A stretch of DNA of 64,000 nt from a virus (IMGVR_UViG_3300001199_000002:112062-176061); one strand, 5' to 3'. Positions 42,733 to 62,281 are shown, numbered from the stretch's first letter. A program made the numbers and translations. Notes: generated by a model from the letters alone, not told the origin.

Positions 42733-43026
42733 TCACAAGAATCCTTTCTTGTCGAGACATACGCCTTTCTCAGGACTTTTACATGTCATTAGAGATGGTG
42801 TCTCAACTCCTATTTCATCATCTCCATAGAAGCATGGTACTTCCAAAATGATAGATGATCGATTAATCTTCACTACCCTACCAGCGGTAGGTGGCGCACC
42901 ATAGAAATAGGCATCGCCTATCTCAATTAGGTTGCCGAAGTAGTCTACGATTGGTTTCTTTGGACGCATAGATGTTGGCGGAGAGCGTGGGAACCGAGCC
43001 CACCCTGAGAGATCAACCCCAGGCAT
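42733..43026 (-). CDS. Hypothetical protein
   Basis: ORF. Confidence 0.35.
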   Translation of the reverse strand: MPGVDLSGWARFPRSPPTSMRPKKPIVDYFGNLIEIGDAYFYGAPPTAGRVVKINRSSIILEVPCFYGDDEIGVETPSLMTCKSPEKGVCLDKKGFL

Positions 43027-43097
43027 ATCCCGTAGGATGTCCGCTTAGCTCTCCAAATCTTACTTACCACTTCTTGTTTTTGTATCCCATCGTAATG

Positions 43098-43176
43098 TGG
43101 TGACAACGGTGGGACTTGAACCCACAAGACGCCCCGTTTTGAGCGGGACAGGTTTGCCAATTTCCGTCACGTTGCC
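43098..43176 (-). tRNA. tRNA, CCA-encoded; anticodon loop read as CUCAAAA (CAA?); D-region irregular
   Basis: Acceptor GGCAACG/CGUUGUC; T-arm GUGGG-UUCAAGU-CCCAC; hand fold. Confidence 0.5.
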
Positions 43177-43700: not shown

Positions 43701-43777
43701 TGGTGACTCGGGTGGGATTCGAACCCACACTGTATGGCTTCTAAGACCATTGCCTCCTGCCGTTGGGCTACCGAGCC
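43701..43777 (-). tRNA. tRNA with anticodon UAG (Leu by anticodon) but short variable loop (type-I body)
   Basis: Acceptor GGCUCGG/CCGAGUC; anticodon arm AUGGU-CUUAGAA-GCCAU; T-arm GUGGG-UUCGAAU-CCCAC; CCA. Confidence 0.6.
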
Positions 43778-44252: not shown

Positions 44253-44328
44253 TGGTGCTCACACCAGGATTCGAACCTGGAACATTTCGGCTCTCGACCG
44301 AACGCCTCTGCCATTGGGCTATGCGAGC
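44253..44328 (-). tRNA. tRNA with non-canonical anticodon loop UCGAGAG (C33)
   Basis: Perfect acceptor GCUCGCA/UGUGAGC; T-arm CCAGG-UUCGAAU-CCUGG; CCA; anticodon stem UUCGG/CCGAA. Confidence 0.5.
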
Positions 44329-49855: not shown

Positions 49856-49967
49856 TGGTGCCCGGAGAGGGAATTGAACCCCCAACCCTCCGCATATCAG
49901 GCGGTGCCAGTTTTGAGGCTGGAGCAGATCATAAATCTACCGCTCTACCTAATTGAGCTATCCGGGC
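49856..49967 (-). tRNA. 112-nt tRNA-like gene; canonical acceptor, D- and T-arms; two anticodon-arm candidates (UAU, GAU) with a 40-nt variable region
   Basis: Acceptor GCCCGGA/UCCGGGC perfect; D-arm GCUC-AAUUAGGUA-GAGC; GUAGA-UUUAUGA-UCUGC; T-arm GGGGG-UUCAAUU-CCCUC; CCA. Confidence 0.45.
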
Positions 49968-52229: not shown

Positions 52230-52315
52230 TGGAGCCGGTAGTAGGATTCGAACCTACGTGGGATTGCTCCGGTAGTTTACAAAACTACTCCTGTCGGCCA
52301 CTGAGGCATACCGGC
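52230..52315 (-). tRNA. 86-nt tRNA with anticodon UGU (Thr by anticodon) and a 14-nt hairpin variable arm (type-II body)
   Basis: Acceptor GCCGGUA/UACCGGC; anticodon arm GUAGU-UUUGUAA-ACUAC; variable CGGAGCAAUCCCAC; T-arm GUAGG-UUCGAAU-CCUAC; U73-CCA. Confidence 0.5.
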
Positions 52316-52321
52316 ATTATG

Positions 52322-52612
52322 TTAGATTGGAAGTTCCACAAACTCGATATGACCTTCCTTCAGAAGTCGATCATACAAAGCATCAGCATTGGATCTACGT
52401 TGCCAGCTATCATGCATAGCGCAATAAGATTCAACATGATTTCTAATTGCGTTCTTTGCATCACCTAAACGCTTCCAAACTGTCTTACCAGAGATCGTAG
52501 TAATAAACTGTCCATCGATCTTGGCACGCCATACAGTTTTTGGAACTTTGATCGCTTTGTTAGTTTCGTTGAAGCGGAATGATTTCCGTACTGATTCAAA
52601 TGTAACAGTCAT
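52322..52612 (-). CDS. Hypothetical protein
   Basis: ORF. Confidence 0.35.
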   Translation of the reverse strand: MTVTFESVRKSFRFNETNKAIKVPKTVWRAKIDGQFITTISGKTVWKRLGDAKNAIRNHVESYCAMHDSWQRRSNADALYDRLLKEGHIEFVELPI

Positions 52613-52815
52613 TTGTCTAGTTTTGATTTGTTTTGGTTTTCGTGTCGGGCAAGTAGCTCACGATAGCAAGCCCACTCATCCATATAACGCTCTACAAACT
52701 TCTGATCTCCAGAGCCACCAAGTTCACATACTAGCTCTTCTACTAGTTGCTTCATCTTGGCCTTGCACTGAGCAGCAGTGTGGTCGTTTGGTTTGAAACG
52801 TCTAAAGTATCCCAT
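52609..52815 (-). CDS. Hypothetical protein
   Basis: ORF. Confidence 0.35.
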   Translation of the reverse strand: MGYFRRFKPNDHTAAQCKAKMKQLVEELVCELGGSGDQKFVERYMDEWACYRELLARHENQNKSKLDK

Positions 52816-53390
52816 AATATTGGTCGCGCAGGATGAATTTGAATCACCACCTATAGGCTTAGGATGCCCGTGCTCTGTCTCCAGGACTTTGTTTAGGAGG
52901 TTTCTTTTAAGCTACTGCGCAGTAAATTTGATCATCTAGATAGGATTTGCACCTATAGTAGTTAGGTCTGCTCTAAGCTGCATCCTAAACCATGCTCGTT
53001 CTCGGCGTCTCTTATTCTTGCCTACACACGCGCGGTTCTGCTAGTTGAACTACTAGATGTAATGATTGGTGTACTAGACGGGATTCCCACCCGTATCTCG
53101 GCCTTGGTTGCCGGCATTGTTAGATAGTTATGCTACTAGCACAAATGGAGCTTCGGGTAGGAGTTTCACCTACATCAGTTCGCGAACATGGTAATTGAGT
53201 AGTTATACGACCGAAGCATGAATGGAGCGGGAAGTCGGTACTGCCCCGACTTATCTAGTTTGGAAGACTAGCACATTACTTTTATGCTATACCCGCATGT
53301 TGCCCAAGCTACCTAGCTTACTTGGACTGGCCACCTTAACTAGTTTCAGTGCAACTACTGGCACTTCAAGTGGTCTTCTCTATCAAGCAC
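52816..53390 (-). ncRNA. Candidate non-coding transcript downstream of the 53394-53422 promoter
   Basis: About 570 nt with no ORF over 35 codons on the minus strand; several stable hairpins (AAGUCGG/CCGACUU; GCUUCGG...CCGAAGC enclosing GUAGG-N7-CCUAC). Confidence 0.3.
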
Positions 53391-53393
53391 TAG

Positions 53394-53422
53394 ATGATAC
53401 ACTAAGACAGCCACGTTGTCAA
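53394..53422 (-). promoter_or_regulatory. Sigma70-type promoter TTGACA-N17-TATCAT with TTAGTG motif
   Basis: Hexamers and spacing; downstream region has no ORF. Confidence 0.45.
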
Positions 53423-53428
53423 GTCTTT

Positions 53429-53950
53429 TTACTGAAACTGAAACGCGAATGGTCTAGTCACAGCAAACTTATTCTGAGTCAGATCCCATAGAGCACCTTG
53501 GCAAAACAAACCAAGTCCTTGGAGCCCAGGCAGGGGTGGAAGTGTAGTCCAAAAAGTCGATTGACATCCTGGAGATACTAGGACAAAGATGTTTGTAACC
53601 AGAATCGATGTGCTAACTACCCATTGACAATTAGGAAGAACAGTTCCAGGAAACTGGAATGGTGGTGGCTGAATCAAATCGATAGAGATGATTGCCTGAT
53701 AGGTAGCGGGATCTCCAAAGTAAGTAGGAATGTTATTCCATACGAACGAGAAGTTTCCACCTGTTGCCGCCACGGGCGCGGCGTTGACAGTTAGCCATGG
53801 CACTACGCCATTGCTGATCTCATTACAGCCCTGAGATGGGATACCTACGACGCCAACCACCCCAGGAAAAGGGTGGGTCTGGCACTGTGCCGTAACGAAT
53901 CCAAGGCTAAGAAACAAACTAAGCAAGTAACGAATCATGTTATACCTCAT
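53429..53950 (-). CDS. Secreted hypothetical protein
   Basis: Signal peptide. Confidence 0.4.
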   Translation of the reverse strand: MRYNMIRYLLSLFLSLGFVTAQCQTHPFPGVVGVVGIPSQGCNEISNGVVPWLTVNAAPVAATGGNFSFVWNNIPTYFGDPATYQAIISIDLIQPPPFQFPGTVLPNCQWVVSTSILVTNIFVLVSPGCQSTFWTTLPPLPGLQGLGLFCQGALWDLTQNKFAVTRPFAFQFQ

Positions 53951-55437
53951 TGGTTGAATCCATAAATCTTGTAAGCAGTCGAACAGAATCCAAACGGACC
54001 TGCATAATCCTTACCAAACGCCATATCTCCATAGATTTGACCAAGTGTAGTCGCTGCAACTTCTGGGATTGGTCCCATCCATTGTCTAACCATTTGACAC
54101 ATAGGCCCCATCTCTCCTTCGCGATTCATTAGCTTCATCACAAGAGCCGTTCCAACCTGAGCGGGCACTACTTGTGAGATATAGCGGAAGCACCATCCAA
54201 ACGTGCTATGCGTAGGTGAATTTGGATCACCCCAAGTAGATGGGTGATTAATCAGTTGGTCACCATTGAATCCAGGACTAGTGTTAAACGCCCAACCGGC
54301 GGTCCAACCAGCACCAAACCACCAAGCTGAAGGTTGCTTCGTGAAGTAACCACGATCCTCTTGGAGGGTGTTAGGAAAGTATGCTGAAGGATGACAGAAC
54401 GCCTCTACCTTCAATAGATGTCCAGCAACGATGATGAGAGCCTTACGTCCAGCACAGTGTCCACCTAGTGGATAGAGCACTCGCCCGTCACAAACAGATC
54501 CGATCTGATCCAATCCGCGTTGAACGATAGCATACGCCAACAGTCTACGTTGTTCAAGTGGCAGTGTCGAACACATTACACATAGCGCAGTTGACACCTG
54601 ACCAGCATAGAATGTGCCATATCCTTCATGCTGAGTCAAGGGCGCATAGGATGCCACTGGCCAACCATCGATATAGTCACCATTGAAACGTCCCATCTCT
54701 TCTAGTAGTCCATTAATCGTCGGGGGTGTTGCGCCCCAACTATTTTGGTCAACAGGACCACGCGGCTGATAGATGTTAGCGAAATCAATGACAGAAGGAC
54801 ATCTATCCATATCCATCTGGGACTCAAAGATTGGTGCGTTTCTAAAGAAACGAGGAAGGAATCCATCACCGATCAACGGTCCGTGAAACATTGGGGGTTG
54901 TCCGGCAACCTCAAACGGAACAAACACAACACCCATAGCCTCATCTACAGAGGAGAACGAACCAGCGGGAGCTTGGCTAACGATGACAAGCGCATCAGTA
55001 GCATAGACTTGCTTATTTGCTGGTAGTTGCATTCCGGCAATATCCGCTCCATTAAATCCACGAACGTTTAGCGCGGCACCAGCGCCACCCTGGCTAGACG
55101 TGTAACTAACAATGCGAGTGTTTGGCCCTACCTGAACCATCCAGGTCTTATCTCGGCACTGCACTGCACCTAGATGACCAGAGATAGTAACACTGATACT
55201 GCGATCTGAGTAAGTAGTTGCTGGAAGCGGAACAGCGTCCGCACTTGCGATCTTCATACTCAGCATGGGCTTTTGCAAGGACTCTGCAAAGCTCTTAGCA
55301 ACCTGCATCTCAAGATCGCGCTTCGTCGGCGCGGATGAGCATCCCACAAGCAAACCCAAAAGGGTCAAAGTTACAGTCTTATTCATCACTTCTCCTGTTG
55401 TTAAAAATGGTAGGTCCGGTGGGGTACGATCCCACAA
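53947..55437 (-). CDS. Large putative lipoprotein (496 aa)
   Basis: LLGLLVGCSS lipobox. Confidence 0.45.
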   Translation of the reverse strand: MWDRTPPDLPFLTTGEVMNKTVTLTLLGLLVGCSSAPTKRDLEMQVAKSFAESLQKPMLSMKIASADAVPLPATTYSDRSISVTISGHLGAVQCRDKTWMVQVGPNTRIVSYTSSQGGAGAALNVRGFNGADIAGMQLPANKQVYATDALVIVSQAPAGSFSSVDEAMGVVFVPFEVAGQPPMFHGPLIGDGFLPRFFRNAPIFESQMDMDRCPSVIDFANIYQPRGPVDQNSWGATPPTINGLLEEMGRFNGDYIDGWPVASYAPLTQHEGYGTFYAGQVSTALCVMCSTLPLEQRRLLAYAIVQRGLDQIGSVCDGRVLYPLGGHCAGRKALIIVAGHLLKVEAFCHPSAYFPNTLQEDRGYFTKQPSAWWFGAGWTAGWAFNTSPGFNGDQLINHPSTWGDPNSPTHSTFGWCFRYISQVVPAQVGTALVMKLMNREGEMGPMCQMVRQWMGPIPEVAATTLGQIYGDMAFGKDYAGPFGFCSTAYKIYGFNQ

Positions 55438-55484
55438 CCTTTCGCTTAAAAGGCGATTACTCTAGCCGATTGAGTTACGGACCA
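55408..55484 (-). tRNA. tRNA-Lys(UUU)
   Basis: Anticodon loop CUUUUAA; T-arm GUGGG-AUCGUAC-CCCAC; CCA; mismatch at 1-72. Confidence 0.55.
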
Positions 55485-55489
55485 GTGTA

Positions 55490-55565
55490 TGGTGCCCTCG
55501 GTAGGACTTGCACCTACAACCTTCTCCTTAAGAGGGAGTTACTCTAGCTATTGAGTTACGAGGGC
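55490..55565 (-). tRNA. tRNA-Lys(CUU)
   Basis: D-arm ACUC/GAGU; anticodon arm ACUCC-CUCUUAA-GGAGA; T-arm GUAGG-UGCAAGU-CCUAC; CCA. Confidence 0.65.
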
Positions 55566-55572
55566 TAGTTGT

Positions 55573-55929
55573 TCAGTCTACAAACTTCACAAGAACGCCA
55601 TGCTTACGGAAGAGCTTCTTGAGCTTCTCTTCTCGCAGTCTATCACTGATGTCTTCATCATCGTTAATGACGATTGCCTTATGGGAAAGGTCATTGTTGA
55701 CGATATCTAGTTCGCAGTCTTCATTACGCTCAGCAATAGTAAGAAACGATGATGCCTTATAGACATTGCATGGTTCGCCCTCGTCGGCAAGTTGCTTCTT
55801 AGGAATGCGACTAATTTGATTCGCAGCAAACCCAAGACAACACATACAACCTTGTCGATTAAGTAGCGCAGCTTCTCCATTCTGGCCACCGCGCGCCCAC
55901 TTCTTCCGCTTCACAGTGAACTTCTTCAT
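55573..55929 (-). CDS. Hypothetical protein
   Basis: ORF. Confidence 0.35.
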   Translation of the reverse strand: MKKFTVKRKKWARGGQNGEAALLNRQGCMCCLGFAANQISRIPKKQLADEGEPCNVYKASSFLTIAERNEDCELDIVNNDLSHKAIVINDDEDISDRLREEKLKKLFRKHGVLVKFVD

Positions 55930-56156
55930 TGCTTTTCCTCGTTGTTTTCTACATTCACGTCACAAATTTCAGCTTCTCCGGTTTCACGCAGATTCTCCAA
56001 GATGTATTCCATATTGGGAGCATCTGATGCGTCTACACGAAACTGGATAGTATAGACGATTGTCTTAGTAGTTGGTTTAAGCTTTGTCTTCATTGTTGTC
56101 TCACTAGGTTTTCTAGTTGTGTCTGCATACCAAGTTCGTATCTGAAATATGGACAA
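55926..56156 (-). CDS. Hypothetical protein
   Basis: ORF. Confidence 0.3.
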   Translation of the reverse strand: MSIFQIRTWYADTTRKPSETTMKTKLKPTTKTIVYTIQFRVDASDAPNMEYILENLRETGEAEICDVNVENNEEKQ

Positions 56157-56641
56157 CCCACATTGTAATCATAGGCTGGCATGATTACTAGTCCATTTGG
56201 ATTCTTTGCTTGCCACTTATCACAATAGGAGGGCCAGTCATCTACGAGAATATCACCCTGAATGGATGACTTATCCTCAGTGACATGCACTGCCTTTACA
56301 AATGGCATACGATCTCGCGCCCATTCTATCTTCTCTGACCACGCTTGCGTGTGATTAGCTGGACCACGAGTCGCAATCTGTATTTCGTATCCTAGTTGCT
56401 GTAGGACGTTTACGATCTGATCACCTACCTGCAACATAGGAAGAGAGCGCCACCAACCCGGCTTTGATTTGATTAGTTGGCATCGATTCCAAATGAAGTC
56501 TGGAAGTGTCATGCGACCATAACGATTGCATGCTTCAAGATAGGTTAGTTCTCCAGGACCAATCAGGCGACTATACGAGGCGGACATCGCGCCATCGTAG
56601 TCAGCTACCGTTCCGTCCATATCTATCAGAGCGATCTTCAC
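56090..56641 (-). CDS. HAD-superfamily phosphatase (nucleotidase / polynucleotide 3'-phosphatase-like)
   Basis: MKIALIDMDGTVADY DxDGT motif I. Confidence 0.55.
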   Translation of the reverse strand: MKIALIDMDGTVADYDGAMSASYSRLIGPGELTYLEACNRYGRMTLPDFIWNRCQLIKSKPGWWRSLPMLQVGDQIVNVLQQLGYEIQIATRGPANHTQAWSEKIEWARDRMPFVKAVHVTEDKSSIQGDILVDDWPSYCDKWQAKNPNGLVIMPAYDYNVGCPYFRYELGMQTQLENLVRQQ

Positions 56642-56841
56642 TTATCTAGTTGAAAGCGTTCAGCACTAAAACACGTATCACGATAATTGATGTATGCATT
56701 ACCATTACCCGTCTTGATAACTACATCACACTTGGCTTGCTTCTTGATACAATCGATTGCTGCATCTAGTGTAGAGAAGACACCTAGAATCTCCATCTCT
56801 GCTGCGGGAGCATAGAAACTTGATGTTACGAACACTTCCAT
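56638..56841 (-). CDS. Hypothetical protein
   Basis: ORF. Confidence 0.3.
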   Translation of the reverse strand: MEVFVTSSFYAPAAEMEILGVFSTLDAAIDCIKKQAKCDVVIKTGNGNAYINYRDTCFSAERFQLDK

Positions 56842-56945
56842 GTTAGTTGTCCTTGTTTTGAAACTGGCGGGGCTACCGAGTGCTGCCCTCGGGCCAACCG
56901 CTCGACAGGCGGTCGTACTACTGTTATACTATAACCCCAAATGAT

Positions 56946-57034
56946 TGGCATGTCCTGGTGGAATTGAACCACACGGCTCCACCCAGTTGCTTTGACGCCT
57001 CTAGTTTAGAAGACTAGTACCAGGGACAGGACAC
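56946..57034 (-). tRNA. Atypical 89-nt tRNA-like element (no clear D-arm); candidate anticodon loop CUUCUAA (UCU)
   Basis: Acceptor GUGUCCU/AGGACAU + G73-CCA; T-arm UGUGG-UUCAAUU-CCACC; 5' part overlaps the 3' end of CDS 57001..57432. Confidence 0.35.
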
Positions 57035-57432
57035 GTAAGATGTTCTGATGCAAGTCTAGACTTCTTTGTTGCTTTGCAATCTGTTCTAAGTGTAACACCG
57101 GCTACATTAGAGAAAGCAGAGTCAGACAAAAAGTAGACAGCGTTGTTAACTGGATTGTATGCAGCAAGGATATCGTAGTCTCCTTGCTTTCTATTAACGT
57201 CATGTGATCCATTGCGATCTGCCCAAGAGGATCGCAACTTCACCACTAAGATGTTACCTTTTGGAGTCGTGTACCTTACCTGCACACGATAGCAAACTCC
57301 ATTCATTTCTGCGATGATGTCATACTTAGTATGTTCAGACAAAGGCATTGCCACACGCCATCCTTGGATGGTAAGTGCTGCAATAGTAGCAGCTACACCA
57401 ATATCTCCCTTATCTTTCTTAGTATGAACCAT
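57001..57432 (-). CDS. Hypothetical protein, possible PD-(D/E)XK-fold nuclease
   Basis: YDIIAE...YRVQVR resembles a D..E.K-type core; 3' end overlaps a tRNA-like element. Confidence 0.35.
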   Translation of the reverse strand: MVHTKKDKGDIGVAATIAALTIQGWRVAMPLSEHTKYDIIAEMNGVCYRVQVRYTTPKGNILVVKLRSSWADRNGSHDVNRKQGDYDILAAYNPVNNAVYFLSDSAFSNVAGVTLRTDCKATKKSRLASEHLTCPVPGTSLLN

Positions 57433-57478
57433 GACCCTCGATCATCGTGGTCTGATCAAGGCGCTGCCAGCCTAACAC

Positions 57479-57691
57479 CTATTTAGACTCGCTGGCACGA
57501 GTGCGACCATCGCGAGGCTTCTTCAATGCCTCAAGGACTCTCCTCTTCCCCAACTCTACATCACCATCACCGAACATAGCGAACAAATCGGCGAAAAACT
57601 CATTGCTCTCTTTCTCACACATCTCACACTCATACTCCCAAAGGAGTCCGTGTTCGCAGCGTTCGGTTTCTAGTTCGTCGTCGTCGCTCAT
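57479..57691 (-). CDS. Small Cys-rich protein
   Basis: CEHG...CEMC; start set at the ATG (ORF track began at TTG 57697). Confidence 0.35.
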   Translation of the reverse strand: MSDDDELETERCEHGLLWEYECEMCEKESNEFFADLFAMFGDGDVELGKRRVLEALKKPRDGRTRASESK

Positions 57692-57696
57692 ACCCA

Positions 57697-57724
57697 ACTA
57701 TACCACGTTATATGTGGTTGTCAA
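57697..57724 (-). promoter_or_regulatory. Sigma70-type promoter TTGACA-N16-TATAGT
   Basis: Hexamers and spacing; -10 ends about 6 nt before the ATG at 57691. Confidence 0.5.
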
Positions 57725-57920
57725 CTCGTTTTTCGAAAAGTTCCACTAGTGTTGTGAGTATCCATAGTAGAACTAAACATAGCTGTATAATTGGACATAC
57801 TATTACAGCAAAAAAGATCATGATCAATACTAAGAGACCCTTCACTCCAACGTCCTCTTCGTGCCTAGCGGCATTAAAAGCGTCAGATACAAAGACGAAA
57901 CCGTTAGGAATCTTTTTCAT
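57708..57920 (-). CDS. Small membrane protein
   Basis: Two hydrophobic segments. Confidence 0.3.
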   Translation of the reverse strand: MKKIPNGFVFVSDAFNAARHEEDVGVKGLLVLIMIFFAVIVCPIIQLCLVLLWILTTLVELFEKRVDNHI

Positions 57921-57927
57921 AGAAAAT

Positions 57928-58003
57928 TGGTGCGCACGGAAGGACTCGAACCTTCGACATCCTCCTTGTAAGGGAGGCGTTCTAGCCGCTGAACTACGCG
58001 CGC
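57928..58003 (-). tRNA. tRNA-Val(UAC)
   Basis: Acceptor GCGCGCG; D-arm GUUC/GAAC; anticodon arm CCUCC-CUUACAA-GGAGG; T-arm GAAGG-UUCGAGU-CCUUC; CCA. Confidence 0.75.
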
Positions 58004-58004
58004 A

Positions 58005-58187
58005 TTATACTTTTACCTTGCGCTTGCCGCAAGTTTTGCAAGTCTTAGTCCATCCACGATAGATACCCTGGTATCCACCAATGTCCGAATAGACTCTAAC
58101 TCCATTTGGTGATTCAATCCAGATACTCTTTGGGTAGTTGAGTGAGAGGAAGGAATGGATCATCTGGCTTATGGCTAGACTCACCAA
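58005..58187 (-). CDS. Small protein with C-terminal zinc-ribbon-like CKTCGKRK
   Basis: ORF. Confidence 0.25.
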   Translation of the reverse strand: MVSLAISQMIHSFLSLNYPKSIWIESPNGVRVYSDIGGYQGIYRGWTKTCKTCGKRKVKV

Positions 58188-58319
58188 GTAGGAATGCTCT
58201 TACTTCCTTAAGCTTGCCAATTGCAAACCGATACTTGTGATGCAGTCCCTTGTCAACGACAAAGGGCTTGCGAAGGATGTGATCAATATGTGCGAGTGTT
58301 AGTTCCATGTTCTTTCTCC

Positions 58320-58402
58320 TAATGTAAATCGGAAGTGGCCTGGATTCGAACCAGGATTTGGCGGTAAACTCTTCAAGCGTAATGTAAAGGGCACATTACT
58401 AA
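58320..58402 (-). other. Orphan tRNA T-arm hairpin plus a 7-bp hairpin, flanked by a direct repeat; tRNA remnant or unknown small RNA
   Basis: CCUGG-UUCGAAU-CCAGG with no completing acceptor, D- or anticodon arms; GUAAUGU-GCCCUUU-ACAUUAC hairpin; taatgtaaa at 58321 and 58381. Confidence 0.3.
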
Positions 58403-58547
58403 GCCCATCTATCAACTCACTACTTATACTATTAGTTACAAATATCATCCGCCTGTTTTGCCAAGGTTTCGTCTCCCCTCCTAAATTATCTATACAATTC
58501 AAAGTTGTATATCTAGGACTCGATTCTAACCTTAAACTACCACTCCC

Positions 58548-59417
58548 TTAGTCGTCATCGTCATCTTGCATATCTTCTGCAATCTGACTGTAGTTTCTCA
58601 TTCGCTTCACCATGTCTTCGACCTTCTTATCGAGCACCAAGCAAGAGATCAAAATCTCTTTGAGTGCCGCAAAAGACAGACCGCCAGTCAGTGTAACGAA
58701 CTTGCTGTTATACTTTGTTTGGAACTTCTCGCATAGGCGTCGCACGTAAGTTTCGCGAGTTTCCCTATTGGGCATACCAACCTCGATCAAAAGATCGAAA
58801 CGCGATGGACGATAGATGCGAGGTTCAAGTTGTTCTAGATGATTTGTAGTCGCCAAGAACAACATGCCTGGACGATCGTTTGCAATACCGTCTAGAAGCT
58901 GGAGGAACTCCTGCTCTTGACGGGAAATCAAACGCTCAAGGTCTTCAAGAACCACCACAAGCTTGCGGTTAGGTTCCAACTTGTTTAGGAATGGAAGGAA
59001 GCTAGTAAACGTATCAGCACGCTTCACGAGCACTACCATACCATTCTGCTTAATGAGATTCTGCCCAACAAGACGAACGATACCACTCTTGCCAGTTCCG
59101 GGTGGACCATACATCAGAATGCCACGACGATAAGGAAGACCAAGCTTCTCATATCGCTTCTCTAGTCCCCAGAACTTGCCAACTTCTTCAACGATTTGTT
59201 GGCATGGACCAGACTTGAATGGGATCAACTCTTCTTGCTTGAGATCAACCGCACACATATATGGACCAGTAAAACCCATGTGGGCTTCGTAGGCTCCTGC
59301 TGGAAGATGAGCGATTGCTGGAGCGTCCATCTGAACGCTAAACACTTCGCCATTTTGTCGCCACTTGAGTCGTGACTCCAACAGTTCATCAATGTCTACT
59401 TCTTGATCGCGTCCCAT
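58548..59417 (-). CDS. AAA-family ATPase
   Basis: GPPGTGKS Walker A; VVLEDLE Walker B; SRFDLLIEVG second-region-of-homology block. Confidence 0.7.
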   Translation of the reverse strand: MGRDQEVDIDELLESRLKWRQNGEVFSVQMDAPAIAHLPAGAYEAHMGFTGPYMCAVDLKQEELIPFKSGPCQQIVEEVGKFWGLEKRYEKLGLPYRRGILMYGPPGTGKSGIVRLVGQNLIKQNGMVVLVKRADTFTSFLPFLNKLEPNRKLVVVLEDLERLISRQEQEFLQLLDGIANDRPGMLFLATTNHLEQLEPRIYRPSRFDLLIEVGMPNRETRETYVRRLCEKFQTKYNSKFVTLTGGLSFAALKEILISCLVLDKKVEDMVKRMRNYSQIAEDMQDDDDD

Positions 59418-59434
59418 GTGCTGTCCTTGTTTGT

Positions 59435-59470
59435 AGTTCTTTGAACTACTTAGTATACCCTATTGTGCCT
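59435..59470 (-). promoter_or_regulatory. Sigma70-type promoter TTGACA-N16-TATACT upstream of the AAA ATPase gene (coordinates approximate, plus or minus a few nt)
   Basis: rc of this stretch reads GAAGTTGACAGCTAGGCACAATAGGGTATACT. Confidence 0.45.
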
Positions 59471-59487
59471 AGCTGTCAACTTCTTTT

Positions 59488-59524
59488 CGAAAAAGAATGG
59501 GTAGGTGAGATTCGAACTCACATC
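59488..59524 (-). other. Orphan tRNA 3'-half (T-arm + 3' acceptor strand) abutting an intact tRNA
   Basis: GUGAG-UUCGAAU-CUCAC then CUACCCA; no matching 5' half. Confidence 0.3.
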
Positions 59525-59597
59525 TCCATGTCGCGATACTGGGTGGACTCGAACCACCGACCCGCCGATTCTAAGTCGGCTGCTCTACCAACTGAGC
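59525..59597 (-). tRNA. tRNA with anticodon UAG (Leu by anticodon) and type-I body; CCA not encoded
   Basis: Perfect stems: GAUACUG/CAGUAUC, GCUC/GAGC, GCCGA-CUUAGAA-UCGGC, GGUGG-UUCGAGU-CCACC. Confidence 0.65.
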
Positions 59598-59639
59598 TAC
59601 AGTATCCATAGTATAGTTTCCGATTACTACGACTACCCC

Positions 59640-59731
59640 TAAGTGTATTGGCGGAAGCGGTGAGACTCGAACTCACAAGACGCTGTTTAGACGCCCTACT
59701 TGTTTTCAAGACAAGCTCCTGATCCAGCCGG
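59640..59731 (-). tRNA. tRNA-Ser(UGA), type II (92 nt)
   Basis: Acceptor GGAAGUG/CGCUUCC; anticodon arm CUUGU-CUUGAAA-ACAAG; 22-nt variable arm; T-arm GUGAG-UUCGAGU-CUCAC; G73-CCA. Confidence 0.6.
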
Positions 59732-59741
59732 ATCACTTCCA

Positions 59742-59827
59742 TTTATCATGACTCCGTAGCAGGATTTGAACCTGCGATGACGCTTACGCGATACAGATTT
59801 GCAGTCTGTTGCCTTCGACCACTCGAC
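59742..59827 (-). tRNA. 86-nt type-II tRNA (Tyr-like body) with anticodon GCA (Cys by anticodon); CCA not encoded
   Basis: Acceptor CUCCGUA/UACGGAG; anticodon arm ACAGA-CUGCAAA-UCUGU; variable AUCGCGUAAGCGUCAUC (CGC-GUAA-GCG hairpin); T-arm GCAGG-UUCAAAU-CCUGC. Confidence 0.5.
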
Positions 59828-59832
59828 CATAC

Positions 59833-59922
59833 GGAGATAATTGGCGGAAGACACAGGAGTCGAACCTGTTTGGCCCTTTCGAACCAGCCTACGATTAGCA
59901 ATCGCGCACCTTACCACTTCGG
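59833..59922 (-). tRNA. tRNA-Ser(GCU), type II (90 nt)
   Basis: Acceptor GGAAGAC/GUCUUCC; anticodon loop UUGCUAA; T-arm ACAGG-UUCGACU-CCUGU; G73-CCA. Confidence 0.55.
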
Positions 59923-60069
59923 TCAGTCTTCCCTATTCACGAACTCTTCTAACTTCTTGATTCCTTTTTCGATGTAACGCTTACGACAAACTCTTTTTAG
60001 ACGTGGAATTTCTGCGACAACTACTAGAGTAAGTAGTATCGTAGCCACGACTATAAGAAGTGTCATCAT
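59914..60069 (-). CDS. Small membrane protein (51 aa)
   Basis: MMTLLIVVATILLTLVVVAEIPRLKR...; below the ORF-track cutoff. Confidence 0.25.
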
Positions 60070-60096
60070 ACATCATAGGACTGACCGAAGTAAAAT

Positions 60097-60172
60097 TGGT
60101 GTAACCTCTTGGAATCGAACCAAGTTGTCCCGCTCTTCAGGCGGGTGCTATGACCACACTAGCTCAAGTTAC
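60097..60172 (-). tRNA. tRNA-Phe(GAA)
   Basis: D-arm GCUA/UAGC; anticodon arm CCCGC-CUGAAGA-GCGGG; T-arm CUUGG-UUCGAUU-CCAAG; A73-CCA. Confidence 0.75.
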
Positions 60173-60177
60173 AAATT

Positions 60178-60252
60178 TGGTGGAGTCACAGGGAATCGCA
60201 CCCTGAATTCCTGCTTGCAAAGCAGGTGTGTTACTATTAGCACTATGACCCC
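60178..60252 (-). tRNA. tRNA-Ala(UGC)
   Basis: G3-U70 present; anticodon arm CCUGC-UUUGCAA-GCAGG; T-arm CAGGG-UGCGAUU-CCCUG; A73-CCA. Confidence 0.7.
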
Positions 60253-60707
60253 GCATTTTCTGATACACTAAGTGTGTGGGCCTCTACTAAAGAATCCCAT
60301 TCACCCATCGCTGTCAACCACATCTTGAATCTACTATCAATAGGTTGATTGTTTAGAAACTTGGACAGTCGCTTCTGGAAGTTGCGCTTCTGACGATCTG
60401 TCATTAGCTTGTAGGATGGCACGTTCTCTTCAAACTCATTGCCCTGATACGTCTTGTTTGGATACGCTCGCATATCAAGAGACACGACCACGCCGCTATC
60501 ATCAGCAATAGCATCTACAGGAACAGAGAAATACATGTTCCACATGGCCAACTTGTGTTCTTTTGAGACGCCACTATGAAAACCACGATCTGCCCACATA
60601 CTGCATGACGGGCTCATTGTCTCTTCAAAGTCGTCGTCAAAATGACAACCGCAAGTTCTGCATTGTATCTTCATCAGAGACCTACCTGCTTGAGTATTGC
60701 TCTCCAC
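60243..60707 (-). CDS. Hypothetical protein with CRTCGCHF zinc-binding-like motif
   Basis: ORF. Confidence 0.4.
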   Translation of the reverse strand: MESNTQAGRSLMKIQCRTCGCHFDDDFEETMSPSCSMWADRGFHSGVSKEHKLAMWNMYFSVPVDAIADDSGVVVSLDMRAYPNKTYQGNEFEENVPSYKLMTDRQKRNFQKRLSKFLNNQPIDSRFKMWLTAMGEWDSLVEAHTLSVSENAGS

Positions 60708-60874
60708 TCTTTCCTAGTTGCAATGACGCCTCCAATCTCTAGAGGTTCGTCAATATCCCTAAGTGTGTCCTCATCAAAGTAGATGGTCAGTTTCTTTTCA
60801 CAGTCTGAACAACTAACAAGCAATCGTGCTGATTGTTTGCCACGAGCTTTGCGTTTCGTTACTTTTGGTTTCAT
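60674..60874 (-). CDS. Small basic zinc-ribbon-like protein
   Basis: CSDCEKK. Confidence 0.3.
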   Translation of the reverse strand: MKPKVTKRKARGKQSARLLVSCSDCEKKLTIYFDEDTLRDIDEPLEIGGVIATRKEWRAILKQVGL

Positions 60875-60960
60875 TGTAAGGTGGGGTGACTAGGCGGATC
60901 TGCCCCGCCCCCTGTTGCGTCACAAGCAACCGCGCTTCTACTACACCATAGTCACAGTGC

Positions 60961-61362
60961 TTATGCTTTATGCATATCACATCGAATTCTCATCCAACCA
61001 GATTCGCTTAGTGTTCCTGGTTGACCACACTTATCACAAGTTACTGACGACAGTTGCTCAGCCGCTGCGATAAGTTCTTGCGCTCCATCAGGATAACTTT
61101 CCAGGTAGAAACGCAACAAACCAAACTTCTCCTTTACCTGGGCGGCTACACATCCCAACTTCTCTAGTTGTTCCGATAGCTGCCACACGATAAGAAACCA
61201 TCCATCTCCACAGTCAAAGCCCCAGGACATACATGATTGTGTCATGCTAGCCCTGCGCTTGCTATAGAGAGTTGGAAAGGTCTCGCACAGGATTTTGTCT
61301 AGTTGTGGATTCATTTGTTGTATTGGTGAGTGATGAGTGAATCGAACACCCTCGGCATCCAC
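60961..61362 (-). CDS. Hypothetical Cys-rich protein
   Basis: ORF. Confidence 0.4.
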   Translation of the reverse strand: MDAEGVRFTHHSPIQQMNPQLDKILCETFPTLYSKRRASMTQSCMSWGFDCGDGWFLIVWQLSEQLEKLGCVAAQVKEKFGLLRFYLESYPDGAQELIAAAEQLSSVTCDKCGQPGTLSESGWMRIRCDMHKA

Positions 61363-61414
61363 CCCACATATTTAGAGCCAACAGATTTACAGTCTGCCGT
61401 GGGGAACACCACTC
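61324..61414 (-). tRNA. 91-nt tRNA-like with Tyr anticodon GUA; atypical short D-region and 30-nt variable region
   Basis: Acceptor GAGUGGU/AUCACUC; GCAGA-CUGUAAA-UCUGU; T-arm GGGUG-UUCGAUU-CACUC; A73-CCA; long-range CCCCAC/GUGGGG pairing. Confidence 0.4.
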
Positions 61415-61420
61415 AAATAT

Positions 61421-61495
61421 TGGTAGGCATGCTAGGAGTCGCACCTAGACTACAACTTCCGTAGAGTTGTGTGTTATCTATTACACTACACGCCC
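61421..61495 (-). tRNA. tRNA-Arg(ACG)
   Basis: D-arm GUGU/ACAC; anticodon arm CAACU-CUACGGA-AGUUG; T-arm CUAGG-UGCGACU-CCUAG; A73-CCA. Confidence 0.7.
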
Positions 61496-61500
61496 ATATT

Positions 61501-61782
61501 CTAAAAGCCTAGTGATTTTCTTTCTTCTTCAGAAAGCTTCGCCAGCGCGGTCTTCTTAATCTCTTCAAGATGTCTCTTCTCGTCTAGCTTGTCGTGCTTT
61601 CTAATCCATTCTTGAAGTTCTTTGATCTCTGCTTTCTTTACAGATGGAGAATGCATCGTAACATCTTGATAGCGAATGATTTTAACTGCATTACATAGCA
61701 ATCGTGTAACTAAGTCAAGCTCCTTCTTTAGCTCTCCATCATTCGAAGAACTGTCTAGAGGTCCATCATAAGTGCATGGCAT
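61501..61782 (-). CDS. Hypothetical protein
   Basis: ORF. Confidence 0.35.
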   Translation of the reverse strand: MPCTYDGPLDSSSNDGELKKELDLVTRLLCNAVKIIRYQDVTMHSPSVKKAEIKELQEWIRKHDKLDEKRHLEEIKKTALAKLSEEERKSLGF

Positions 61783-61784
61783 GA

Positions 61785-62105
61785 TTAGTATCCTAGTTTC
61801 TTTTTGTTTTTGTCGATGATGTTACGATACCGATGCTGGTATGTTCTTACGAACATGTCAGGCTCTCTACCTTGACTTACTGTTTCTTTTGTGTGGATAT
61901 TCTTCCACTCTGTATGCCAAGATGAATACTCATCCTGCCAAGAGATATCAATGTGGTTTGTGTAGAACCACTCTGCATATTCTAGAAGCTTTCGCTCCTT
62001 CTCTTTATCAGCCGCGTCCTTCTTGATCGCCTTATCCAGTAGAGACAATTCTTCTGGCGATAGTCGAACGTGCAGATACTTCTTCGTCTTTTTGAGTAGC
62101 TTCAT
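61785..62105 (-). CDS. Hypothetical protein
   Basis: ORF. Confidence 0.35.
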   Translation of the reverse strand: MKLLKKTKKYLHVRLSPEELSLLDKAIKKDAADKEKERKLLEYAEWFYTNHIDISWQDEYSSWHTEWKNIHTKETVSQGREPDMFVRTYQHRYRNIIDKNKKKLGY

Positions 62106-62112
62106 AGAAAAT

Positions 62113-62186
62113 TGGAGGGTCGTGATGGAATCGAACCATCATAGGCATGTTAACAGCATGCTGCTCTACCATTGAGCTAACAACCC
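62113..62186 (-). tRNA. tRNA-Asn(GUU)
   Basis: D-arm GCUC-AAUGGUA-GAGC; anticodon arm GCAUG-CUGUUAA-CAUGC; T-arm GAUGG-UUCGAUU-CCAUC; U73-CCA. Confidence 0.75.
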
Positions 62187-62191
62187 ATGAG

Positions 62192-62281
62192 TGGTCTGGA
62201 TGGTAGGATTTGAACCTACGAGATCCCTTCGGGCCTCCTGTCTCCAAAACAGGCGCTCTGACCAAGCTGAGCTACATCCAG
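62192..62281 (-). tRNA. 90-nt tRNA with anticodon UGG (Pro by anticodon) and a 17-nt hairpin variable arm (type-II body)
   Basis: All stems perfect: CUGGAUG/CAUCCAG, GCUC/GAGC, CCUGU-UUUGGAG-ACAGG, variable AGGCCCGAAGGGAUCUC, GUAGG-UUCAAAU-CCUAC; A73-CCA. Confidence 0.55.

Follow-up and report, generated by a model that had tools for sequence, protein, structure and literature searches.

Variable arms at odds with their anticodons in a viral tRNA array

Does the shape of a transfer RNA (tRNA) foretell the amino acid that it carries? A long variable arm is said to belong to tRNA-Leu, tRNA-Ser, and bacterial tRNA-Tyr, with tRNA-Leu and tRNA-Ser losing it only in animal mitochondria (PMC9976931). 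The viral sequence IMGVR_UViG_3300001199_000002:112062-176061, a stretch of 64,000 nucleotides (nt) that was analyzed as a whole and is called the window here, contains a tRNA array in which tRNAs with proline, cysteine, and threonine anticodons carry long hairpin variable arms and tRNAs with leucine anticodons carry short variable loops. A sequence-only reading of the window had proposed that these anticodons are decoupled from the canonical identity elements or that the tRNAs are chimeric. We find decoupling unsupported: the Pro, Cys, and Thr tRNAs and three Leu tRNAs with A73 keep their cognate marks, and codon meanings are standard. On sequence comparison, we lean toward the view that these are functional, cognately charged tRNAs whose identity follows the anticodon and not the structural class, and whose variable region is plastic in phage arrays.

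Seven tRNAs with intact folds and unexpected variable regions

The array, whose tRNAs studied here all lie on the minus strand, runs from about 42.9 kilobases (kb) to the end of the window at 64 kb, with small open reading frames (ORFs) interspersed. ARAGORN identifies 21 tRNAs in the window, Rfam adds three more and a Pistol ribozyme, and a custom acceptor/T-arm scan yields several further aberrant tRNA-like genes. We judged tRNA membership by the full RF00005 model of Rfam at its gathering threshold of 29 bits, and took as class II any tRNA with a variable region of at least 10 nt that forms a stem-loop between the anticodon and T arms. All seven tRNAs at issue (Pro, Cys, Thr, and four with Leu anticodons) cover model positions 1-71, their ARAGORN and Rfam scores are far above threshold, and ARAGORN gives every tRNA studied an acceptor stem of 7 base pairs (bp) and a T stem of 5 bp. 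The variable regions of Pro (17 nt), Cys (17 nt), and Thr (14 nt) are of class-II form, with 3-bp (or interrupted 6-bp) stems and GNRA-like loops.

Both programs support the long-hairpin arms with UGG, GCA, and UGU anticodons, as well as the short variable loops with the leucine anticodons UAG (two tRNAs), CAA, and GAG, the last within the loop UCGAGAG, all of which had first been read from the sequence alone, GAG there only as an aberrant UCGAGAG loop. The coordinates proposed for the Cys tRNA (59742-59827) and for one UAG tRNA (59525-59597) were about 9 nt too low, the actual positions being 59750-59836 and 59533-59606. In the long-arm tRNAs, the anticodon loops are intact 7-mers, and the Rfam alignment and ARAGORN place the extra bases between positions 44 and 48. 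No other anticodon loop restores the canonical class, and introns are ruled out as the origin of the added length because the insertions lie in the variable region and not at position 37/38.

Identity rules were taken from Giegé and Eriani 2023 (PMC9976931), and the diagnostic positions were tabulated for each tRNA. Nearest-neighbor scoring of the bodies against 29 E. coli tRNAs had little power, as ordinary phage Val, Lys, and Arg tRNAs missed their own isotype and only Pro, Gly, and type-II Leu matched theirs; we therefore relied on identity nucleotides and homologues. Relatives of the window were reached through protein homologues of an anchor ORF at 53947-55437, and their arrays are syntenic. 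The anchor protein is 91% identical in contigs L001/L002 and 63% identical in L003 and in L004/L005, and the tRNA orthologues in L001, L003, and L004 show compensatory stem changes. Lineage-specific scans of viral and metagenome contigs with the Pro variable arm, the 5′ half of tRNA-Ile(GAU), and the anchor protein and its alignment gave no relatives, and megablast found no close relative of the window region in INPHARED.

Long-arm tRNAs for proline, cysteine, and threonine

The tRNA-Pro(UGG) at 62192-62281 is a 90-nt tRNA of class-II shape (ARAGORN; Rfam, 60.6 bits). As first described, its stems are perfect and its variable arm contains CCC-GAA-GGG; the stems number four, the variable region has 17 nt, and CCA is encoded. 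The body is canonical, with a 12-nt insertion, CCCGAAGGGAUC, in the variable loop. Bacterial tRNA-Pro identity resides in G72, A73, G35, G36, and the G15:C48 Levitt pair (PMC9976931), with a contribution from G37 (the m1G37 site); the window tRNA has C1:G72, A73, G35, G36, and G15:C48, and A rather than G at position 37 (loop UUUGGAG). The best full-length matches in INPHARED are annotated tRNA-Pro genes of 74-76 nt. Aligned with the type-I tRNA-Pro of Streptomyces phage Annadreamy, Mycobacterium phage Whirlwind, and E. coli proM, the body is near-identical to that of Annadreamy and the 12-nt insertion is clean. The tRNA-Pro(UGG) is thus an ordinary proline tRNA that gained a 12-nt hairpin. 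It is 90 nt long in the window, L003, and L004, with an identical variable arm and two compensatory changes in the T stem; purifying selection on the arm is not demonstrable, with 0 of 17 nt differing against only 4-5 differences across the 90-nt tRNA. The replacement of the usual G37 by A37 is shared by three readers of CCN or CUN codons on the minus strand (62192-62281, 43701-43777, and 44253-44328).

The tRNA-Cys(GCA) at 59750-59836 (87 nt; ARAGORN; Rfam, 57.8 bits) has a class-II shape on a Tyr-like scaffold, with U73, G15:C48, and a 17-nt variable region forming the hairpin CGC-GUAA-GCG; CCA is not encoded. Bacterial tRNA-Cys is recognized chiefly through U73 and the GCA anticodon, to which E. 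coli and a few further species add G15:G48 (PMC9976931). The window tRNA has G15:C48 as its Levitt pair and lacks the E. coli-specific G15:G48, and the U73 and GCA set is complete in the Cys tRNAs of the window, L003, L004, 11 IMG/VR sequences, and L122, a locus in a metagenome-assembled genome (MAG). Microcystis phage MaMV-DC supplies its sole INPHARED match, a tRNA-Tyr(GUA) that lacks annotation. The two are 93% identical in the D arm and anticodon stem, closer than the window tRNA is to its own L003 orthologue, and the window tRNA differs by U35C in the anticodon and by U73 instead of A73 as discriminator. The tRNA-Cys is therefore a tRNA-Tyr scaffold of type II to which U35C, U73, and a new acceptor stem have given a new identity.

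Recruitment of a tRNA gene to a new identity by anticodon mutation, known as alloacceptor remoulding or anticodon shift, has mitochondrial and bacterial examples. The window Cys shares with these cases the retention of Tyr(GUA) D and anticodon arms with one anticodon change (U35C), but here the structural classes are crossed, a class-II scaffold serving a class-I identity; A73 has also become U73, the acceptor stem is new, and the arm was later lost in the L004 orthologue. That orthologue is 73 nt long and armless, and the L003 orthologue has 82 nt and the hairpin UAU-GAAA-AUA. A scan of IMG/VR for Tyr-bodied long-arm Cys tRNAs gave 13 genuine cases, 11 of them distinct, with U73 in all; 74 of the 87 pattern matches proved to be one repeated coding sequence and not tRNAs.

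The tRNA-Thr(UGU) at 52230-52315 (86 nt; class-II shape; ARAGORN; Rfam, 52.9 bits) has a 14-nt variable region with the hairpin GGA-GCAA-UCC and an encoded CCA. Its marks are G1:C72, C2:G71, U73, G35, U36, and G15:C48. The acceptor pairs of E. coli tRNA-Thr are likewise G1:C72 and C2:G71. Bacterial tRNA-Thr identity depends on acceptor-stem pairs and the anticodon, with position 73 minor (PMC9976931), and the set of G1:C72, C2:G71, and UGU is complete in the Thr tRNAs of the window, L001, L004, L177, L209, and L232. The orthologue in L001 has 86 nt and that in L004 has 89 nt and a GGGA/UCCC hairpin, with compensatory changes in the anticodon, acceptor, and T stems across the three genomes; in L003, an unrelated 74-nt tRNA-Thr takes the place of the long-arm form. 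INPHARED holds no match to this tRNA. A near-identical variable arm, CGGAGCAAUCCCCC, occurs in the unrelated IMG/VR contig L209, and further long-arm Thr(UGU) tRNAs occur in L177 and L232; one of the Thr tRNAs in such arrays has an arm that is a single base away from that of the window.

Parts of these tRNAs are shared across isotypes. The 3′ module, comprising the end of the variable arm and the T arm, is 96% identical between the window Thr and the tRNA-Lys(CUU) of L004, a 90-nt type-II tRNA with A73, and 78-87% identical among Thr, Cys, and Pro. The similarity of these modules across Thr, Lys, Cys, and Pro suggests, at the sequence level, an exchange of modules within arrays. The L004 Lys probably stands on a related Tyr-like type-II scaffold, and the Thr possibly does so as well. 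The idea of a chimeric origin is thus partly right, holding for the remoulded Cys and, as a description of evolution, for the shared 3′ module; Pro is a proline body with an insertion.

Short tRNA-Leu genes and an orphan UAG tRNA

Three tRNAs with leucine anticodons and A73 are type I: Leu(UAG) at 43701-43777 (77 nt; 5-nt variable loop ACAGU; 58.2 bits; CCA encoded), Leu(GAG) at 44253-44328 (76 nt; 5-nt variable region; anticodon loop UCGAGAG; 54.0 bits), and Leu(CAA) at 43098-43176 (79 nt; a 5-6-nt variable loop ending in U48; 40.4 bits). The D arm of Leu(CAA), GACGGAAAUUGGCAAACC, and its T arm resemble those of E. coli tRNA-Leu, the D arm being closest to the CAG isoacceptor. A leucyl-tRNA synthetase (LeuRS) of the E. 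coli type needs A73, A14, A15:U48, and the placement of G18G19, and needs neither the anticodon nor the long arm (PMC9976931, PMC6614811); all three tRNAs have this complete set. Position 33, near-universally U in tRNAs, is C in the Leu(GAG) of the window, L003, and L004, and U in that of L001.

These nucleotides are conserved well beyond the window. A14, A15, U48, and A73 occur together in the A73 Leu tRNAs, type I or type II, found here and in five cultured phages, the one exception being Leu(UAA) of L004, in which U15 is scored, possibly through a shift in D-loop length. In an alignment of 17 type-I Leu tRNAs, A15, U48, and A73 are invariant, 98.2% of the cells are paired, 18 of the 20 pairs show double changes, and none of 500 shuffles reaches the observed covariation score. 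Leu(UAG) matches 207 INPHARED records. In a sample drawn from these at even spacing, nearly all are annotated as tRNA-Leu, and they align without a gap through the variable loop; the phages sampled infect Streptomyces, Mycobacterium, Bacillus, Enterococcus, Erwinia, Cronobacter, Pseudomonas, Vibrio, Synechococcus, and Prochlorococcus. We verified the type-I fold in ten of the matched genes. When bacterial genomes, one per GTDB species, were scanned for the D-arm and T-arm motif of the window Leu family at type-I spacing, the motif matches listed were exclusively type-I tRNA-Leu. They come from at least 120 species, most of them Actinomycetota, with Streptomyces and complete chromosomes among them. 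Among the matches listed (at least 120 loci), 97 of 120 are singletons and 13 of 120 lie in arrays.

A type-I tRNA-Leu(CAA) of Streptomyces coelicolor, with the variable loop ACAGC, is leucylated by its own LeuRS and was not charged by E. coli LeuRS (Fan et al. 2019, PMC6614811). The window tRNAs share with it a Leu anticodon, the 7/5 cloverleaf, and a loop of 5 nt (ACAGC in S. coelicolor; ACAGU, AUGUU, and UCUU in the window). They differ in being phage-encoded with three anticodons (UAG, GAG, and CAA), in replacing all type-II Leu tRNAs in the window, and in keeping A15:U48 and A73, the latter of which S. coelicolor LeuRS does not use. From their sequences, the short Leu tRNAs appear to be members of an old, widespread, and already published type-I family that is unremarkable in itself. 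The belief that the whole pattern was undescribed thus does not extend to the short Leu tRNAs, which are published and leucylated in S. coelicolor (PMC6614811), and it appears to stand for long-arm Pro, Thr, and Cys, of which we found no description.

The remaining UAG tRNA, at 59606-59533 (74 nt; 5-nt variable region; 73.0 bits), is an orphan. Its stems are all perfect, as had been claimed, but it has G73 and G15:C48, lacks the E. coli-type Leu set, and does not encode CCA. Its best INPHARED matches are tRNA-Asn and tRNA-Lys genes, and its only orthologue, in L001/L002, reads UAU, with the loop CUUAUAC against CUUAGAA in the window and with compensatory T-stem changes. This tRNA is a true mismatch of body and anticodon and, by E. 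coli-type rules, not a leucine tRNA.

Comparison across the relatives shows that the variable arm is dispensable, being gained and lost among orthologues while the anticodon and acceptor stay constant. It comes and goes in that the Cys orthologues measure 87, 82, and 73 nt and Leu(UAG) is type II in L001 and L003 and type I in the window and L004. For Leu(GAG), Leu(CAA), and Leu(UAA), the short form is the one seen throughout.

Codon meanings and a model of cognate charging

We asked what the codons read by these tRNAs mean in the phage's own proteins. In a 496-residue protein encoded in the window, aligned with 35 distant homologues, ACA most often aligns with Thr, UGY with Cys, and CCA with Pro (47%, like the other Pro codons), and CUA aligns with Leu in 68% of cases. 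These standard meanings rule out sense-codon reassignment; the tRNAs, if used in translation, must therefore carry the cognate residue. The long-arm non-Leu tRNAs, moreover, all have G15:C48 and not the Leu-specific A15:U48.

The model that we favor takes these for genuine elongator tRNA genes, of the expressed type, carried by a large tailed phage that is uncultured. The synthetases for Pro, Thr, Cys, and Lys read the anticodon and the acceptor end, and a projecting variable arm should be tolerated by them. LeuRS ignores the anticodon and, in E. coli, the long arm as well, and S. coelicolor offers a precedent for the charging of a type-I tRNA-Leu. The standard amino acid would then be delivered at the standard codons, and host tRNAs would be supplemented or replaced during infection. 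An actinobacterial host is plausible because the type-I Leu tRNAs are mostly found in Actinomycetota and because the ribonucleotide reductase of the window, which is closest to actinophage enzymes (41% identity), and the Pro tRNA are actinophage-like. A Pfam scan of 30 ORFs in the cluster revealed no phage synthetase or tRNA-modifying enzyme.

Several observations weigh against cognate charging. The orphan UAG tRNA, with its G73 and G15:C48, does not fit it, and A37 in Pro and in the CUN-reading Leu tRNAs and C33 in Leu(GAG) depart from canonical decoding loops. The nematode nev-tRNAs, class-II tRNAs with odd anticodons, are reportedly charged with leucine. The codon check excludes reassignment but leaves room for low-level mistranslation. 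The failure of E. coli LeuRS on the Streptomyces type-I tRNA-Leu makes charging of the short Leu tRNAs dependent on the host (PMC6614811). Finally, S. coelicolor LeuRS ignores A73, and in such a host there is no evident bar to leucylation of the long-arm tRNAs (PMC6614811).

Long arms in other arrays and a GAU loop in tRNA-Ile(UAU)

On the IMG/VR contigs with a long-arm Cys, the arrays also include a 90-nt Pro(UGG) with C1:G72, A73, and the loop UUUGGAG, and Thr(UGU) tRNAs (83-85 nt) that have G1:C72 and C2:G71. Other long forms there are Ile(UAU) at 91-92 nt, Met or Ile2(CAU) at 87-91 nt, and Asn, Asp, and Glu at 85-89 nt, and type-I Leu stands beside type-II Leu. The Cys(GCA) of the L122 locus measures 85 nt and has U73 and a D arm like that of Tyr, and L130 holds an 88-nt Trp(CCA) with the Trp marks A1:U72 and G73 along with a 93-nt Ile(UAU). 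We found no published description of long-arm Pro, Thr, Cys, or other non-Leu/Ser/Tyr phage tRNAs in the literature, and phages go unmentioned in a 2020 review of non-canonical tRNAs. The long-arm Pro, Thr, and Cys tRNAs belong to a broader, seemingly unreported pattern of phage arrays. A change in the other direction was seen at L113 7249-7324, in a 15-tRNA array of a Chloroflexi MAG, where a 76-nt tRNA-Tyr(GUA) has a 4-nt variable loop and is type I. Bacterial tRNA-Tyr is normally type II, and the class switch therefore occurs for Tyr too.

In the window, a long arm outside Leu, Ser, and Tyr is also found on the tRNA-Ile(UAU) at 49857-49967 (minus strand), which has 111 nt and, in the Rfam alignment, the anticodon loop UUUAUGA and a 40-nt variable region with two hairpins. 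In intron mode, ARAGORN calls this locus (49967-49857) a Leu(CAA) with a 19-nt intron, an artefact, as the CUCAAAA hairpin is not conserved and both Rfam and conservation point to the UAU anticodon. The second variable hairpin, CCGC-CUGAUAU-GCGG, resembles the anticodon stem-loop of tRNA-Ile(GAU) and is invariant in four genomes. Counterparts lie at L001 10091-10200, L003 15284-15388, L004 14635-14739, and L130 6350-6442, with one each on L209 and L232. The unrelated long-arm Ile(UAU) tRNAs of L130, L209, and L232 have the 7-nt variable-arm loops CAGAUCA, CAGAUAA, and CAGAUUA, with GAU in the same place, so that in four independent lineages the arm ends in a loop C(U/A)GAU(N)(A/U), like the anticodon loop of tRNA-Ile(GAU); the long-arm Ile(UAU) of L084 lacks a GAU-bearing loop. 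E. coli isoleucyl-tRNA synthetase (IleRS) charges a tRNA with a UAU anticodon about 360-fold worse than one with LAU (PMC3575796), and it is conceivable that the arm acts as an identity mimic that lets a standard IleRS accept a decoder of AUA. We found no paper on such a GAU-loop variable arm.

A broader proposal, which we hold to be rather improbable, is that the variable arm is a functional, transferable module of phage arrays that hides tRNAs from structure-reading host nucleases or supplies identity. The module would, on the same slender odds, have been added to Pro(UGG), Thr(UGU), Cys(GCA), Ile(UAU), Met/Ile2(CAU), Lys, Trp, Asn, Asp, and Glu, and its removal from Leu, and occasionally from Tyr, would be a comparably doubtful part of the proposal.

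Competing explanations

The class switch might instead be an adaptive counter-defense in which the shape, altered by arm gain on type-I tRNAs or arm loss on tRNA-Leu, spares the phage copies from host tRNA nucleases or from the phage's own degradation of host tRNAs, to which the host copies would succumb. We rate this a minority possibility, and it refines cognate charging rather than excluding it. Phage tRNAs rescue infection from tRNA-cleaving defenses (Azam et al. 2024, PMC11555353), and loop changes in phage tRNAs evade nucleases (van den Berg et al. 2023, PMC10264068). The tRNAs of these published systems are, like the present ones, array tRNAs that differ from the host's at positions contacted by nucleases, in a setting of genes resembling anti-defense genes; the changes there are anticodon-loop substitutions or over-expression, and not the gain or loss of an entire arm. 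Prokaryotic Schlafens cleave tRNAs in phage defense (PMC13056530), and the eukaryotic nuclease SLFN11 prefers type-II tRNAs, as cited in PMC13462974. CbCash cuts at the T-loop UUC (PMC13462974), which many T loops in the window lack. A bacterial nuclease that sorts tRNAs by variable-arm class is not known, however, and the prokaryotic Schlafens that have been studied act broadly or elsewhere in the tRNA. In favor of counter-defense, the cluster of the relatives contains or adjoins anti-defense-like genes (Gad2, Acb5-like) and a ligase of the T4 Rnl1 type, long-armed Pro(UGG), Thr(UGU), Cys(GCA), and Ile(UAU) recur in independent arrays, and the Thr variable arm is nearly identical in a distant array although the stems have diverged. 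Against this, the arm was lost from Cys in L004 and Thr in L003 with no visible compensation, and type-I Leu is a chromosomal singleton in many Actinomycetota (97 of the 120 loci listed), which fits an ordinary host-type tRNA.

Mischarging offers a different account, one that we consider improbable: the long-arm tRNAs would be nev-like, charged by LeuRS or by the seryl- or tyrosyl-tRNA synthetase (SerRS, TyrRS) to give mistranslation, or would be, as the sequence-only reading had suggested, decoys or repair substrates outside translation. LeuRS and SerRS do ignore the anticodon, and a yeast tRNA-Ser with a UGG anticodon is still serylated (PMC9976931); nev-tRNAs combine the class-II form with Gly or Ile anticodons (Hamashima et al. 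2012, PMC3333845); A73 is dispensable for S. coelicolor LeuRS; Cys and the L004 Lys have Tyr-like D arms; and Pro and the type-II Lys have A73. The nev-tRNAs share with the phage tRNAs a long variable arm and an anticodon other than Leu, Ser, or Tyr, but they are Leu-bodied. A tRNA of their kind would carry A73 and the Leu core under its non-Leu anticodon, and the phage long-arm tRNAs have cognate acceptor and core marks without A15:U48. Thr and Cys have U73 and no U35, so that strong determinants for TyrRS and for E. coli-type LeuRS are absent; the four long-arm types have G15:C48 throughout, against A15:U48 in nearly all Leu tRNAs here; and the body of Pro is plainly that of a proline tRNA.

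Serylation is no better served. A SerRS substrate has a long arm of Ser size and orientation, with support from G73 and the acceptor stem (PMC9976931, PMC7609411). None of the long-arm tRNAs has G73, and their arms are short (14-17 nt; stems of 3-4 bp, or an interrupted helix in Pro) compared with the 20-22 nt and 6-7 bp of the phage's own tRNA-Ser. The allo-tRNAs and selC* tRNA-Cys (Mukai et al. 2017, PMC5389517; PMC7609411) likewise have long arms and unexpected anticodons, including Cys, and are bacterial or phage-associated, but their geometry is 8/4 or 9/3 and their bodies are selenocysteine- or Ser-like, in contrast to the canonical 7/5 of the window tRNAs. The long-arm tRNAs are, in addition, the sole phage copies for their anticodons in the window, and with standard codon meanings mischarging would harm the phage's own proteins. 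Given the identity table and the codon test, nev-like mischarging is disfavored.

That the genes are decaying pseudogenes or prediction artefacts, through introns or a mis-assigned anticodon loop, is essentially excluded: phage tRNA arrays evolve fast, several adjoining tRNA-like genes are aberrant, and ARAGORN's intron mode errs here (the Leu(CAA) with a 19-nt intron at 49967 and a Leu(UAG) with a 132-nt intron at 58546), but two independent methods agree on the folds and anticodons, the stems are perfect, the orthologues are conserved with compensatory changes although the anchor protein is only 63% identical, analogous tRNAs occur in unrelated arrays, and the added bases lie outside the anticodon loop.

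Taken together, the window and the wider scans show the textbook rule on long arms to be broken routinely in phage arrays, in both directions, with identity nucleotides retained, and heuristics that derive the isotype from shape, together with "isotype mismatch" flags, will mislead for phage tRNAs. The arrays amount to natural experiments on which synthetases tolerate an extra arm, of use in the design of orthogonal or tagged tRNAs. Pairs with and without the arm that nature already offers, such as the Cys tRNAs of 87, 82, and 73 nt, make the purpose of large phage arrays testable. If the switch does protect against tRNA-targeting immunity, it would represent a new layer in the arms race between phage and host.

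Neighboring genes and other unusual tRNA-like elements

The remainder of the window is of phage type, with a class II ribonucleotide reductase, NAMPT and NUDIX proteins, and an endosialidase-like tail-spike domain; a DenV-like glycosylase, an RNase T-like exonuclease, and AAA ATPases are also encoded. In the relatives (L001, L003, L004, and the P0003 contig), genes of the Gad2-like and Acb5-like anti-defense families, for an RNase T-like exonuclease, and for NT5C are interspersed with the tRNAs. The T4 Rnl1-type RNA ligase is encoded about 9 kb upstream of the anchor gene in one relative, and the equivalent spot would fall just beyond the end of the window.

In about one-third of the window tRNAs, the T loop does not begin with the universal UUC (T-Psi-C). 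They include, on the minus strand, His (60955-60882), Asp (56938-56866), Gly (53296-53223), Ala (60252-60178), Arg (61495-61421), two Lys (55565-55490 and 55484-55408), and Glu (44489-44416), and the loops found are GGCAGAU, GGCAGCA, GGCAGUA, UGCGAUU, UGCGACU, UGCAAGU, AUCGUAC, and AUCGAUA. The T-loop UUC is the cleavage site of at least one CRISPR-associated Schlafen nuclease (PMC13462974).

A Pistol self-cleaving ribozyme (51.5 bits in Rfam) lies inside the array at 57430-57502 on the minus strand and is present in all relatives (L001 3403-3473, L003 from 7654, L004 8105-8180). Its 3′ end abuts a tRNA-Arg(UCU) in L004 (8180-8256) and lies about 35 nt upstream of tRNA-Arg(UCU) in L003; in the window, the next gene is a PD-(D/E)XK endonuclease ORF and not tRNA-Arg(UCU). 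The ribozyme may act in 5′ processing.

Neither ARAGORN nor Rfam reports a tRNA-Tyr(GUA)-like gene that lies at 61325-61414 (minus strand), with counterparts at L002 165-254, L003 4140-4229, and L004 3683-3772. Its acceptor stem and T arm are normal, and A73 and CCA are present, but the D arm is not of the normal form. A helix of 6 bp, CCCCAC/GUGGGG, is stacked on the anticodon stem and has a bulge of 12 nt, GGCUCUAAAUAU, on the 3′ side. Across the four genomes, 14 of the 27 predicted pairs show compensatory changes.

Several more genes on the minus strand depart from the usual plan. A 100-nt tRNA-like gene at 52822-52921, with the loop AUCCUAA (CCU, Arg), A73, and CCA, contains a hairpin of about 25 nt within its D arm and is 91-95% identical in L001, L003, and L004. 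Four others (53147-53217, 53068-53142, 52930-53059, and 42977-43054) have good acceptor and T arms and aberrant interiors, and some are conserved in the relatives; most end in CCA, 52930-53059 ending in UCA. One of the four has a CCA (Trp) anticodon in the loop AACCAAG and the T loop UGGGAAU, one is 130 nt long, and 42977-43054 has no variable loop and a hairpin where the D arm is expected. The longest element, 218 nt at 58329-58546, is the one that ARAGORN calls a Leu(UAG) with a 132-nt intron; it has a perfect acceptor stem, a GGUUCGAAUCC T arm, and about 130 nt of extra sequence, and is 80% conserved at L001 2638-2860.

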